A DNA stretch of 26,521 bases from a virus (Duplodnaviria; Heunggongvirae; Uroviricota; Caudoviricetes): IMG/VR virus record IMGVR_UViG_2875722834_000004, one strand, 5' to 3'. Positions within the stretch are counted from its first letter, which is position 1. Every line of letters starts with the position of its first letter. The notes under the pieces are model-generated. The model was not told the origin of the DNA, made no database searches, and saw only the letters and a program-made list of their open reading frames with translations. This document shows, one piece after another, positions 7,440-12,845 of the stretch. The position numbers were made by a program, and so were the translations under genes.

Positions 7440-8900
7440 GCTATTGTTAACACCAAGCTGTAATGTCCCCTTTGAACCATTCTAAAATGTCCCCAGACAA
7501 TTCTCTGGGGGATTTTTCATGATCAAAGAGACTGTTACGATGAGTCATAAGGAACTCCACCGACTTCAGATTATTCAGGAACAAGCTGCGGCACGCATTG
7601 GCATTTCTATTCGGCAGGTTAAACGTCTGGTGCAACGGTATAGAAATGAAGGGCCTTCTGGTCTGGTTTCCCACCGACGTGGAAAGCGTCCTAATAATTC
7701 CTTTTCTACTGAATTCAGAGCAACAGTAATTTCACTCCTCAAAGGCCGTTACGCTGATTTTGGACCTACGTTTGCGTGCGAAAAATTGCGCGAGATACAC
7801 GGTTTATCTTTATCCGTTGAAACTCTCAGAAAGTGGATGATAGAAGAGGGGTTATGGCGTGAACGCCGTCGTAAAATTGCCCGTATATATCAACGCCGCA
7901 TGCGACGACCATCTTACGGTGAACTGATCCAGATTGATGGCTCACCTCATGACTGGTTTGAAAATCGAGGCCCCAGATGTACACTGATCGTTTTCATTGA
8001 TGATGCCACCAGTGCGTTGATGGCGTTGCGTTTTGTGCCTGCTGAAACAACCCGGGCTTACATGGAAACCCTCCGGGGTTACCTTAATGATCATGGCGTA
8101 CCGCTCGCTCTCTACTCTGATAGACACAGTATATTCAGGGTAAATAACCCAGAGCGGGAAGGTGAGCTGACCCAGTTCACTCGTGCGATAAAGACACTGG
8201 GCATCGAGCCAATCCATGCCAACAGCCCGCAGGCAAAAGGGCGGGTAGAGCGCGCCAATCAGACACTACAGGACAGGCTGGTCAAAGAAATGCGGCTTCA
8301 GAATATCAGTGATATTGAAACAGCAAATGCATGGTTGCCGACCTTTATTGAAGCCTATAACAACCGGTTCGCTACGTCGCCTCGTACTACTGATAATGCT
8401 CATCTTGATGTGCACCATTCTGAAGAGGAACTGGGTTATATCTTCAGCCTACAGGCGAAGCGCGTTCTGTCTAAAAATCTCACTTTCCAGTACAAAAGCA
8501 GTGCGTTTCAGGTACGCAGTGAGGGCCGGGGATATCGACTTAGGCATTCGGTTGTTACTGTATGCGAGAACTTTGACGGTGAAATTAACGTTCTGTATGA
8601 CGGGAAAGCGCTGGGCTGGGAAAAGTATGTTGATGGCCCGGAGCCTATACCACTGGATGATGAAAAGAGTGTCCATGAACGAGTGGATAATGCCCGTATT
8701 GATTTACGCTCAAAATACTATGTTAAACCTAAAGCTGACCATCCCTGGCTTACGCGCCGAACGCAAAGTCATCAGCAAGTTAAGCCCCCGAAGTTACCTA
8801 AAAAGAAGCCTGATCCCGATAAAAAAGATTGAAACCAAGATCGATTCGGTTGAGTGCATATCCATTCATAGGGTAGATTCTTAAGTCGCGTTTCTGGTGT
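7440..8900 (+). mobile_element. Putative insertion sequence carrying the 437-aa transposase (ends not defined)
   Basis: Single transposase ORF replacing the segment where Qin carries dicA/dicC/ydfABC; a hairpin (CCCCAGA...TCTGGGG, 7489-7507) sequesters the GGGGGA SD-like sequence before the ATG. I could not identify terminal inverted repeats or a target duplication by eye. Confidence 0.3.
7519..8832 (+). CDS. DDE transposase/integrase (rve core), IS481/ISNCY-like, 437 aa
   Basis: N-terminal HTH-like region, then DDE triad candidates (IQIDGSPHDW, YSDRHS, SPQAKGRVERANQTLQ). Confidence 0.8.
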   Translation: MIKETVTMSHKELHRLQIIQEQAAARIGISIRQVKRLVQRYRNEGPSGLVSHRRGKRPNNSFSTEFRATVISLLKGRYADFGPTFACEKLREIHGLSLSVETLRKWMIEEGLWRERRRKIARIYQRRMRRPSYGELIQIDGSPHDWFENRGPRCTLIVFIDDATSALMALRFVPAETTRAYMETLRGYLNDHGVPLALYSDRHSIFRVNNPEREGELTQFTRAIKTLGIEPIHANSPQAKGRVERANQTLQDRLVKEMRLQNISDIETANAWLPTFIEAYNNRFATSPRTTDNAHLDVHHSEEELGYIFSLQAKRVLSKNLTFQYKSSAFQVRSEGRGYRLRHSVVTVCENFDGEINVLYDGKALGWEKYVDGPEPIPLDDEKSVHERVDNARIDLRSKYYVKPKADHPWLTRRTQSHQQVKPPKLPKKKPDPDKKD

Positions 8901-9651: not shown

Positions 9652-9803
9652 ATCGTATTTCTTGTGTCATTAATTGTTTGATGTTCAGATTGTTTTCCTC
9701 GCGGGCTGGCGCGCCTCAGAAAGTAAAGCTTGTTGACAGGGGTAAACGTTCGGCAATAATTTTCTGCCGCATGCGGGTGTTGCATAAAACGTGTTACGTT
9801 CCT

Positions 9804-10109
9804 TTATCGACAGGTCAGGTCACCGCTCACCCGCCGACGAGAAAGCAACACTGACATGCTAAAGCAAAAAATAGATGAATAAGTTGAGTTGTGCATATGT
9901 AGCCTGACCGTCACAAAGTATATGGTGTCTGTACCAGTAAGATGATGGCCGGACTCTTTAAAAACGAGCTGACCTGCACAATACAGGATGGACTTAGCAA
10001 TGGCTGCTCCTGGCACAAAGCGGACAGTGATCACCGTTCTTACGACTACTTTCTGACTTCCTTCGTGACTTGCCCTAAGCATGTTGTAGTGCGATACTTG
10101 TAATGACAT
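9804..10109 (-). CDS. ydfV: Hypothetical protein in the ydfV position (101 aa)
   Basis: 101-aa ORF between flxA and relB, same length and position as ydfV in Qin; sequence identity not verified. Confidence 0.4.
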   Translation of the reverse strand: MSLQVSHYNMLRASHEGSQKVVVRTVITVRFVPGAAIAKSILYCAGQLVFKESGHHLTGTDTIYFVTVRLHMHNSTYSSIFCFSMSVLLSRRRVSGDLTCR

Positions 10110-10122
10110 TTGTAATTACAAG
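10097..10122 (+). promoter_or_regulatory. relBE operator/promoter region (relO-like inverted TTGTAAT repeats)
   Basis: CTTGTAATGACATTTGTAATTACAAG palindrome directly upstream of the relB SD and ATG. Confidence 0.55.
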
Positions 10123-10133
10123 AGGTGTAAGAC

Positions 10134-10373
10134 ATGGGTAGCATTAACCTGCGTATTGACGATGAACTTAAAGCGCGTTCTTACGCCGCGCTTGAAAAAA
10201 TGGGTGTAACTCCTTCTGAAGCGCTTCGTCTCATGCTCGAGTATATCGCTGACAATGAACGCTTGCCGTTCAAACAGACACTCCTGAGTGATGAAGATGC
10301 TGAACTTGTGGAGATAGTGAAAGAACGGCTTCGTAATCCTAAGCCAGTACGTGTGACGCTGGATGAACTCTGA
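10134..10373 (+). CDS. relB: RelB antitoxin (79 aa)
   Basis: MGSINLRIDDELKARSYA...PKPVRVTLDEL matches E. coli RelB; stop overlaps the relE start (TGATG). Confidence 0.9.
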   Translation: MGSINLRIDDELKARSYAALEKMGVTPSEALRLMLEYIADNERLPFKQTLLSDEDAELVEIVKERLRNPKPVRVTLDEL

Positions 10374-10498
10374 TGGCGTATTTTCTGGATTTTGACGAGC
10401 GGGCACTAAAGGAATGGCGAAAGCTGGGCTCGACGGTACGTGAACAGTTGAAAAAGAAGCTGGTTGAAGTACTTGAGTCACCCCGGATTCGAGGTTAA
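10373..10498 (+). pseudogene. relE: Truncated relE toxin gene (first ~39 codons, then unrelated sequence and a stop)
   Basis: MAYFLDFDERALKEWRKLGSTVREQLKKKLVEVLESPRI matches the RelE N-terminus; the frame then reads RG and stops, lacking the RelE C-terminal catalytic half. Confidence 0.8.
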
Positions 10499-10608
10499 GA
10501 AAGCTCTCAGTCTCGACTATCGGCACTGGATAATCTCTGTCAGGCTGCCTTATTCCGAACGCCCACCACGTGCGTCCCGCACTTTCCAGCAACGGATCTG
10601 GAGGTAAC

Positions 10609-11658
10609 GTGCGGGTATTACTTAGACCTGTTCTGGTGCCTGAGCTTGGGCTGGTGGTCCTTAAGCCGGGCCGTGAATCCATACAGATATTTCATAATCC
10701 TCGAGTGCTGGTGGAACCGGAACCAAAAAGCATGCGTAATCTGCCATCCGGAGTCGTTCCTGCCGTTCGCCAGCCGCTGGCGGAAGACAAAACATTGCTG
10801 CCGTTTTTTAGTAACGAACGGGTGATTCGTGCTGCTGGCGGCGTTGGCGCATTGTCCGACTGGCTATTACGTCATGTTACATCCTGCCAGTGGCCTAATG
10901 GCGATTACCATCACACTGAAACAGTCATTCACCGTTATGGTACCGGCGCAATGGTGTTGTGCTGGCACTGCGACAACCAACTGCGTGACCAGACATCGGA
11001 ATCACTGGAGCTGCTTGCTCAACAAAATCTGACAGCATGGGTGATTGACGTCATCCGTCACGCAATAAGCGGTACGCAGGAGCGGGAATTATCTTTGGCT
11101 GAATTATCCTGGTGGGCGGTCTGCAATCAGGTGGTGGATGCACTACCTGAGGCTGTATCGCGTCGTTCGCTGGGATTACCAGCGGAAAAAATCTGCTCGG
11201 TGTACCGCGAAAGCGACATCGTACCGGGAGAGCAGACCGCCACCAGCATATTGAAACAACGCACAAAAAATCTTGCACCGTTGCCTTACGCCCACCAGCA
11301 ACAAAAATCACCACAGGAAAAGACGGTGGTAAGCATCACCGTTGATCCAGAGTCTCCGGAATCTTTCATGAAGCTGCCTAAACGTCGCCGCTGGGTTAAG
11401 GAGAAATACACACGTTGGGTTAAGACACAGCCGTGTGCTTGCTGCAGTATGCCAGCCGACGATCCGCATCATCTGATTGGTCACGGGCAGGGCGGAATGG
11501 GAACAAAAGCACATGATCTCTTTGTGTTGCCTTTGTGCAGAAAGCATCACAACGAGCTGCATACGGATACAGTGGCATTTGAAGATAAGTATGGCTCCCA
11601 ACTGGAGCTGATATTTCGTTTTATCGATCGCGCGCTGGCAATTGGCGTACTGGTGTAA
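10609..11658 (+). CDS. ydfU: YdfU-like protein (DUF968-type) with a C-terminal HNH/zinc-finger-like motif
   Basis: GTG start 4 nt after a GGAGG SD; 349 aa, the length I recall for K-12 YdfU; C-terminus has CACCSMPADDPHHLIGHG...CRKHHNELH. The six-frame ORF extends upstream to 10570. Confidence 0.7.
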   Translation: MRVLLRPVLVPELGLVVLKPGRESIQIFHNPRVLVEPEPKSMRNLPSGVVPAVRQPLAEDKTLLPFFSNERVIRAAGGVGALSDWLLRHVTSCQWPNGDYHHTETVIHRYGTGAMVLCWHCDNQLRDQTSESLELLAQQNLTAWVIDVIRHAISGTQERELSLAELSWWAVCNQVVDALPEAVSRRSLGLPAEKICSVYRESDIVPGEQTATSILKQRTKNLAPLPYAHQQQKSPQEKTVVSITVDPESPESFMKLPKRRRWVKEKYTRWVKTQPCACCSMPADDPHHLIGHGQGGMGTKAHDLFVLPLCRKHHNELHTDTVAFEDKYGSQLELIFRFIDRALAIGVLV

Positions 11659-11671
11659 GTGGAGAACGAGC

Positions 11672-12424
11672 ATGAACCTTGAAGCCTTACCAAAATATTA
11701 CTCCCCAAAATCTCCAAAATTGAGCGATGACGCTCCAGCGACAGGCACCGGTTGTTTAACAATTACGGATGTAATGGCAGCGCAGGGGATGGTGCAGTCG
11801 AAAGCACCACTTGGGTTGGCCTTATTTCTGGCAAAAGTTGGTGTTCAGGACCCTCAGTTTGCGATTGAAGGCCTGCTAAATTACGCGATGGCACTGGATA
11901 ACCCGACATTGAACAAATTGAGTGAAGAAATCCGGTTACAGATTATTCCTTACCTCGTGAGTTTTGCCTTTGCTGATTACTCCAGGTCTGCGGCAAGTAA
12001 GGCTCGCTGTGAGCATTGTTCAGGTACGGGATTTTATAATGTATTGCGCGAAGTGGTGAAACACTACAGACGCGGGGAATCTGTAATCAAGGAAGAATGG
12101 GTGAAGGAACTATGTCAGCATTGCCATGGTAAGGGCGAAGCCAGCACAGCGTGCAGAGGGTGTAAGGGTAAAGGGATTGTTCTGGATGAAAAAAGAACCC
12201 GGTTTCATGGCGTACCGGTATATAAGATTTGTGGGCGTTGTAATGGAAACCGGTTTAGTCGTTTACCGACCACGCTGGCACGACGTCATGTCCAGAAGCT
12301 GGTACCAGACCTGACCGATTATCAGTGGTATAAGGGGTATGCGGACGTCATTGGTAAACTGGTAACAAAGTGCTGGCAGGAAGAAGCATACGCGGAAGCG
12401 CAATTGAGGAAGGTGATGAGATAA
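11672..12424 (+). CDS. quuQ: Late-gene antiterminator Q homolog (QuuQ-like), 250 aa
   Basis: Cys/His-rich zinc-binding region (CEHCSGTG...CQHCHGKG...CRGCKGKG...CGRCNG) typical of Q-family antiterminators; sits upstream of the lysis cassette. Confidence 0.75.
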   Translation: MNLEALPKYYSPKSPKLSDDAPATGTGCLTITDVMAAQGMVQSKAPLGLALFLAKVGVQDPQFAIEGLLNYAMALDNPTLNKLSEEIRLQIIPYLVSFAFADYSRSAASKARCEHCSGTGFYNVLREVVKHYRRGESVIKEEWVKELCQHCHGKGEASTACRGCKGKGIVLDEKRTRFHGVPVYKICGRCNGNRFSRLPTTLARRHVQKLVPDLTDYQWYKGYADVIGKLVTKCWQEEAYAEAQLRKVMR

Positions 12425-12845
12425 ATGATTTTTGCTGAAGATGGCGACATGATGTTTGCATTTTTCAAAAAATATGGATAAAATTTTTTCAACGATGGGC
12501 TTTGTATACCCGACGTTAAGAAAAAGTAGAAAACCTGCTGATGAGCGGGTTTTGTGCTTTAAATGGGGCAATGGTAATGTTGAATATCATCCCGGGACTC
12601 ATGTCTGTTAACTTATTATTTAGCTGGTGACTTGGTTATTTGCCTGATGTTTAAAATGTTTTCTTCCAGTACAATGTCCCTAAACACAATGAGTCTGCTT
12701 ATTATATTATTAGCAGAGCTATTACGGCCAAAGTACAGCATAAGCTTTTAAAGCCAATCAACCAGTCATCAAGACAGACGGGGTTATTCATAAAAACTCT
12801 CCATGTGTGATCCGATGGGGCCTGAAATTAAAGCTTTAATATAGC

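Follow-up and report, generated by a model that had tools for sequence, protein, structure and literature searches.

The ydfU gene of a Qin-type Escherichia coli prophage encodes a probable two-part HNH nuclease of the phage recombination and replication block

Proteins of the DUF968 family have been assigned to group 7 of the His-Me finger superfamily, with YdfU of Escherichia coli K-12 named as a member (Jablonska 2017, PMC5714182), and the zinc-finger HNH motif of the family was noted by Curtis et al. in 2014 (PMC4118853). The recombination context of DUF968 is likewise already published (PMC5714182, PMC4118853), RusA, Q, and an antirepressor being given as neighbors by Jablonska et al. (PMC5714182), and Kaur and Subramanian predicted a nuclease function for the sister family DUF1364/YbcO in 2016. 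Biochemical results are available for Gp16 of Staphylococcus phage ΦNM1, which nicks plasmid DNA with an activity enhanced by RecA and which inhibits host growth and replication (PMC12817073). In the same study, C181 was needed for cleavage in vitro. Growth inhibition disappeared when the zinc positions were mutated, was partly relieved by H185A and H189A, and was unaffected by H157A. YdfU itself is still found among the E. coli y-ome entries (PMC11551758), and the papers that mention ydfU in a genome-wide association study of HUS or among point mutations of transconjugants hold no functional information on it.

The window analyzed here, that is, the whole 26,521-nucleotide stretch of DNA that carries ydfU, is a Qin-type defective lambdoid prophage of E. 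coli. Positions 9800-12500 are colinear with strain HH107 at 99.9% identity, and with K-12 derivatives the match is split in two by a gap of ∼1.1 kb. The features around ydfU are as follows.

10134-10373: relB, intact (RefSeq annotation of HH107)
10373..10498, plus strand: relE remnant of 41 codons, out of frame past the deletion junction and ending at a TAA stop (truncated, 10373-10489, in RefSeq HH107)
10485..10607, plus strand: C-terminal remnant (41 codons) of a small ORF that precedes ydfU, its N terminus removed by the deletion
10600..10604, plus strand: Shine-Dalgarno sequence GGAGG of ydfU, within the final codons of the ORF upstream, read from the sequence
10609..11658, plus strand: ydfU coding sequence, 349 aa, GTG start, stop codon included
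11672..12424, plus strand: Q antiterminator (ydfT/quuQ), a late-gene regulator (Pfam Antiterm PF03589, 3.6e-54; RefSeq)

The plus-strand frame at 10609-11658 translates to an intact protein of 349 aa with the terminus ...KTQPCACCSMPADDPHHLIGHGQGGMGTKAHDLFVLPLCRKHHNELHTDTVAFEDKYGSQLELIFRFIDRALAIGVLV*. The GTG at 10609 is well supported as the start and is translationally coupled, because GGAGG lies at 10600-10604 and the TAA of the upstream ORF at 10605-10607, with one base between this stop and the GTG. The product, labeled a DUF968 domain-containing protein in RefSeq, is identical to K-12 YdfU at 347/348 positions, the sole difference being G280S. Computed over 69 distinct prophage copies from E. 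coli, the pairwise dN/dS is ∼0.11 for the whole gene and 0.06 for the HNH domain; hence selection maintains the YdfU family in prophages. In the defective Qin prophage, ydfU is intact, yet probably silent. A very strong Rho-dependent terminator, among the strongest of K-12, lies upstream of the gene in that strain (PMC9160355). A terminator-like hairpin at 11592-11610, inside the 3′ end of ydfU, was attributed to chance, as the region has no more sites of this kind than expected from shuffling.

A preliminary description of this DNA had placed ydfU directly after a toxin-depleted relBE remnant. The toxin-depleted relBE is indeed upstream: relative to K-12, a deletion of ∼1.1 kb with its junction at ∼10484-10490, in a short CGG(A/G)TT microhomology, has taken the part of relE after codon ∼39, hokD, rem, and the small ORF's N-terminal half, leaving the relB antitoxin intact without its toxin. 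The direct adjacency does not hold, since the 41-codon ORF remnant (10485-10607) lies between the two. Of 5426 complete E. coli genomes, a single one, that of strain HH107, has the deletion junction. In K-12 the full small ORF encodes 92 aa and belongs to PHROG 1212 (unknown function). We compared 79 E. coli prophage loci from IMG/VR that had enough upstream flank and carried relatives of 84-99% identity; in every one (79/79), the small ORF is translationally coupled to ydfU, stopping one or two bases short of it, encodes 92-135 aa of PHROG 1212, and is without a Pfam match. A partner ORF conserved across lineages was considered and rejected: K-12 orf92, P1 PdcA, and the ORFs upstream of the homologs P0133 and P0181 show no convincing similarity and belong to different PHROGs, and it is within E. 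coli alone that the partnership stands firm.

Two side observations concern the upstream regions. The 114-aa ORF upstream of the P0133 homolog (L002:4623-4901) weakly matches PHROG 6486, which also matches the C-terminal part of a 265-aa regulator encoded upstream of the SfII homolog. Within the window, an intact 437-aa ORF at 7519-8832, whose HH107 counterpart is annotated as a partial ISNCY-family transposase, sits between the dicB-side genes and ydfW/flxA.

The end of YdfU had been read as HNH-like, and this reading is borne out computationally by the DUF968 match, by cross-matches to HNHc_6 and Ref, and by profile links to YbcO, Ref, and Gp16. The Pfam DUF968 model (PF06147) matches with an E value of 7.2e-76 (254.4 bits; cut-off, 27.8) over residues 160-346 and model positions 1-171, and PHROG 96, “HNH endonuclease,” matches the protein end to end (E = 2.6e-170). 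HNHc_6 (PF16784, the family of ΦNM1 Gp16 and of Orf-HNH proteins from Listeria and Staphylococcus; gathering threshold, 26.6 bits) scores 25.9 bits with full-length YdfU and 28.6 bits with the C-terminal 79 residues, while RecA_dep_nuc (PF16786, P1 Ref) scores 18.8 bits with the full length and 20.7 bits with the C-terminal fragment, both under its cut-off of 26.9. In the Pfam scan of YdfU, the generic HNH model PF01844 gave no match and NinG (PF05766) was absent at E values up to 10; an NCBIfam search with the protein also gave no match. Sequence searches of the PDB with phmmer and hmmsearch, by the single protein or by a 39-sequence profile, were empty, and Ref and YbcO were reached solely through profile-profile and fold comparison. 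In hhalign, the family alignment (39 sequences, 25-89% identity to YdfU) matched YbcO (PDB 3g27) with an E value of 2.2e-5, P1 Ref with 1.5e-5, and ΦNM1 Gp16 with 5.7e-8 (95% probability over 127 columns). An AlphaFold2 model built on the family alignment has a mean pLDDT of 86.3, the relative placement of the two halves of YdfU being uncertain because the pTM is only 0.54. The closest solved structure by fold is P1 Ref (PDB 3plw), and YdfU is predicted to have the beta-beta-alpha-metal fold of the His-Me finger/HNH superfamily. The HNH assignment is thus correct. It is not new, because papers of 2014 and 2017 contain it and phage annotation already uses it, both in PHROGs and in the RefSeq records of phages SfII, SfIV, mEp390, ST64B, and D6, which label the YdfU homolog an HNH endonuclease.

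Within the protein, the following parts were distinguished.

10609..11088, plus strand: N-terminal domain (residues 1-160), an orphan fold built from short beta-strands and helices with a beta-hairpin and a long helix
10885..10977, plus strand: second Cys/His cluster (C93-Q94 ... H101 ... C118-W119-H120-C121-D122-N123), a putative structural metal site
11089..11373, plus strand: central helical/linker region (residues 161-255), matching the first half of the Pfam DUF968 model
11374..11655, plus strand: C-terminal HNH/His-Me finger domain (residues 256-349), with predicted beta1 at 285-288, beta2 at 306-309, and a helix at 311-319
11434..11562, plus strand: Cys/His motif C276-H318, from family covariation and the alignment to Gp16
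11446..11448, plus strand: codon of S280 in the CxxCG zinc knuckle, Gly in K-12 (CACCG) and in most relatives

The Cys/His string quoted in the preliminary description is exact in the translation (terminus KTQPCACCSMPADDPHHLIGHGQGGMGTKAHDLFVLPLCRKHHNELHTDTVAFEDKYGSQLELIFRFIDRALAIGVLV) and corresponds to residues 276-318 (CACCS…DDPHH…HD…PLCRKHHNELH; window 11434-11562); two further helices are predicted after helix 311-319. Its spacing had been likened to that of HNH/His-Me finger nucleases, and the family alignment divides the string: one part is predicted to be catalytic, and the other is predicted to bind zinc structurally. C276 is invariant, and most of the 39 sequences have C279, C310, and Cys or His at position 313, which are replaced in a subset; since these ligands are replaced mostly together, they point to one structural zinc site of the type CCC[C/H], and C276, C279, C310, and H313 of YdfU look like that site. 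H288 (conserved in at least 90% of the alignment), H314, and H318 are retained even in sequences without the zinc cysteines, and the three are lost together in the clade that includes P1 PdcB, whereas D303 and P308 are invariant throughout. By this pattern of conservation and covariation, the active site appears to consist of H288, D303, H314, and H318, with H288, at the end of beta1, the predicted general base and H314 and H318, on the helix, the predicted ligands of the catalytic metal. H288 aligns with H113 of Ref, H32 of YbcO, and H157 of Gp16; Gp16 residues C145, C148, H157, C181, H184, H185, and H189 map one-to-one onto YdfU positions, H185 and H189 being the counterparts of H314 and H318. 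The objection that the conserved Cys/His residues might belong to nothing but a non-catalytic zinc ribbon fails, because the zinc knuckle that is present is the normal treble-clef HNH scaffold and the catalytic set (H288, H314, and H318) is intact and conserved. One correction to the earlier reading concerns the allele, which has G280S within the CxxCG zinc knuckle. Among relatives with the same local pattern, position 280 is G in 88, D in 2, and S, Q, or R in 1 each, and we count the substitution among the points against a nuclease reading.

The clade of P1 PdcB bears on whether the domain cuts DNA at all. PdcB (L003:3905-4948) is a full-length YdfU homolog with 26% identity over 91% of YdfU, and its clade also includes P0199, P0212, and P0269. 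It has no equivalents of H287/H288, H314, and H318, while the four zinc cysteines and D303 are kept. Because PdcB is non-essential in P1 (PMC10695390) and its clade is without the catalytic histidines, the conserved core of the family may act without cleavage. YdfU as a whole could accordingly be imagined as a non-catalytic zinc-finger binder of DNA or protein, a scaffold kept to mark or protect DNA or to recruit the resolvase or RecA, and the preserved architecture of the PdcB clade agrees with this, as do the Gp16 mutants, in which changes at the zinc positions abolish the phenotype, H185A and H189A have partial effects, and H157A has none (PMC12817073). We nevertheless regard a binder of this kind as unlikely for YdfU: outside the PdcB clade, H288, H314, and H318 occur in nearly all members, one clade has dropped the zinc cysteines with the histidines retained, the HNH domain has the lowest dN/dS (0.06), and the allele in the window has every catalytic residue.

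Upstream of the HNH domain, the second Cys/His cluster surrounds a predicted beta-hairpin (residues 105-110 and 113-118) and helix (119-125). Every aligned sequence has C93 and C118, 38/39 have Cys or His at positions 101 and 121, and W119 and D122 are conserved in at least 90% of the same alignment; the cluster C93/H101/C118/C121, absent from the preliminary description, is covered by no family model and, on this conservation, would constitute a metal site. The N-terminal Cys/His domain could conceivably be a degenerate second HNH-like treble clef. An internal duplication was examined by hhalign of residues 60-160 against 255-349, which orders the Cys ligands alike with a score of 14.3; it is not established, because 6/120 column shuffles reached that score. 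In the central region, residues 226-239 (11284-11325) are of low confidence and vary in length. An Orf/NinB-like N terminus has been stated for DUF968 proteins (PMC4118853). YdfU is without the Orf/NinB-like N-terminal domain of HNHc_6 proteins, and the statement fits Gram-positive proteins that are now in HNHc_6 and does not apply to YdfU. Apparent fusions of the YdfU N terminus to tail-fibre, capsid, portal, and tip-attachment proteins, seen among 50%-identity representatives, were rejected as chimeric assemblies or products of prophage deletion; the database proteins concerned (P0144, P0188, P0189, P0255, P0173, and P0125) are most likely chimeras or deletion fusions.

The position of ydfU directly upstream of Q, as first described, is confirmed by the PF03589 gene at 11672-12424, which starts 13 nt downstream. 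In the 79 E. coli prophage loci, the gene after ydfU is RusA, followed by Q, in 62, and Q follows directly, as in the window, in the other 17; no resolvase adjoins ydfU in Qin. The computed synteny of more distant homologs is as follows.

SfII, mEp390, and ST64B: RusA one or two genes upstream of the homolog, with a Q-like gene immediately downstream
P0140 and P0184: RusA downstream of the homolog
P0181: a VRR_NUC gene downstream, overlapping the 3′ end of the homolog
P0203: a PHROG 190 Holliday-junction resolvase downstream
P0174: a DUF1064 protein downstream
P0133: RusA ∼2 kb upstream
P1 clade (PdcB and P0199): late activator Lpa next, no adjacent resolvase

As three unrelated resolvase families occupy the same position, a shared pathway is favored over chance linkage. 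At all loci examined, the YdfU homolog precedes Q or Lpa in the early region, and in both loci that reach the packaging genes, a lysis cassette separates it from terminase. This placement bears on the commonest roles of phage HNH proteins (PMC12817073), by which YdfU would be either a terminase-associated packaging factor like HK97 gp74 or a free-standing homing endonuclease. Either role is highly improbable here: the gene lies before Q/Lpa and away from terminase, terminase adjacency of the HK97 gp74 type was found at none of the loci examined, ST64B has a separate small HNH protein (sb56) at the right-hand end of its map, far from the YdfU homolog, and the generic PF01844 model does not match. 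YdfU is also unlike a mobile homing gene because its synteny is stable across phages at 25-99% identity and purifying selection extends over a two-domain protein of 349 aa.

A different alternative is a host-directed toxic or conflict nuclease, acting in host DNA degradation, superinfection exclusion, or anti-defense. A toxin-antitoxin module lies upstream of the homolog in Qin (relBE) as in P1 (phd-doc), host growth and replication are inhibited by the related Gp16 (PMC12817073), and the authors who described the strong K-12 terminator consider that such terminators suppress toxic prophage genes (PMC9160355). Against this, PADLOC defense models returned for YdfU only a chance-level match to PglZ (E = 0.078), it has no dedicated immunity gene that is conserved from one lineage to the next, the small ORFs upstream being not demonstrably homologous, and the conserved neighbors are junction resolvases and a late regulator. 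Because of these neighbors, a role in the core lytic program fits better than that of a moron, and we consider a toxic function improbable.

We therefore favor, with a probability of roughly 60%, the reading of YdfU as a two-part phage DNA enzyme, in which an HNH nuclease domain is joined to a recognition region and which belongs to the recombination/replication block. The proposal that YdfU is an HNH/His-Me finger nuclease of replication or recombination, its activity being predicted from sequence, finds support in the profiles, the catalytic positions, and the resolvase neighbors. The metal use, nicking, substrate, and RecA or resolvase dependence that we infer for the enzyme would take the following form. 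A structural zinc held by C276, C279, C310, and H313 would brace the beta-beta-alpha unit; water would be activated by H288 at the first strand's end; and H314 and H318, probably aided by the invariant D303, would hold a catalytic divalent metal. The enzyme would cut one DNA strand at a time, with substrate or partner recognition most likely supplied by the N-terminal region (residues ∼1-222). The gene would belong to the delayed-early “nin-like” recombination/replication block of lambdoid phages, and its likely job would be the nicking or trimming of branched recombination or replication intermediates during lytic growth, presumably in the pathway of the adjoining resolvase. By analogy with P1 Ref and ΦNM1 Gp16, RecA may stimulate it.

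A more specific version is possible, if doubtful: YdfU-type proteins might form a distinct two-module class of nucleases in which an orphan N-terminal metal domain targets a C-terminal HNH nickase to recombination intermediates, paired with the resolvase of the phage (RusA, VRR-NUC, or DUF1064 type), P1 PdcB being a nuclease-dead member that has kept targeting or binding.

The fold assignment itself is no addition to the literature, and the advance is incremental and not surprising. What we add are leads, namely, the second Cys/His site, the nuclease-dead PdcB clade, the pairing with resolvases of three families, the alignment to Gp16, the G280S substitution, and the strain-specific deletion. 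The family is widespread: it gave 2,597 representative hits, most E. coli genomes carry YdfU relatives, frequently in several prophages of one genome and with Stx-converting phages among the carriers, and the homologs are encoded in the block governing the transition to late gene expression. The analysis names the residues predicted to act in catalysis and in zinc binding, along with RecA and the adjacent resolvase as likely partners. Should the pairing with resolvases and the nuclease-dead state of the PdcB clade be borne out, the handling of recombination intermediates by temperate phages would become clearer.

Among characterized proteins, YdfU has its best profile match in Gp16, an HNHc_6 protein; Gp16 in turn exceeds the DUF968 threshold (29.1 bits). 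The two have in common the motif CxxC-x8-H ... LCR(E/K)HHNE(Q/L)H, and the gene for Gp16, like ydfU, is an early gene with RusA in the same operon region. The DUF968/DUF1364 group is represented structurally by YbcO of prophage DLP12/82 (PDB 3g27), a stand-alone domain of 96 aa whose zinc site is CCCC, compared with CCCH in YdfU; YdfU has ∼255 extra N-terminal residues, which include the second Cys/His cluster. P1 Ref, an HNH endonuclease that depends on RecA, has a basic, disordered N terminus of 76 residues, required for function (PMC4330346), in place of which YdfU has a folded region of 220 residues. Within P1, pdcB is preceded by phd-doc/pdcA and immediately followed by the late activator lpa, an order like that of relBE ... 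ydfU-Q in Qin, and no resolvase adjoins pdcB. Lambda Rap (NinG), an HNH-type endonuclease of branched DNA encoded in the nin region, also belongs to the His-Me finger superfamily and acts in recombination, but it falls in His-Me group 24, whereas YdfU falls in group 7. Since YdfU co-occurs with RusA, it is not a substitute for a resolvase.
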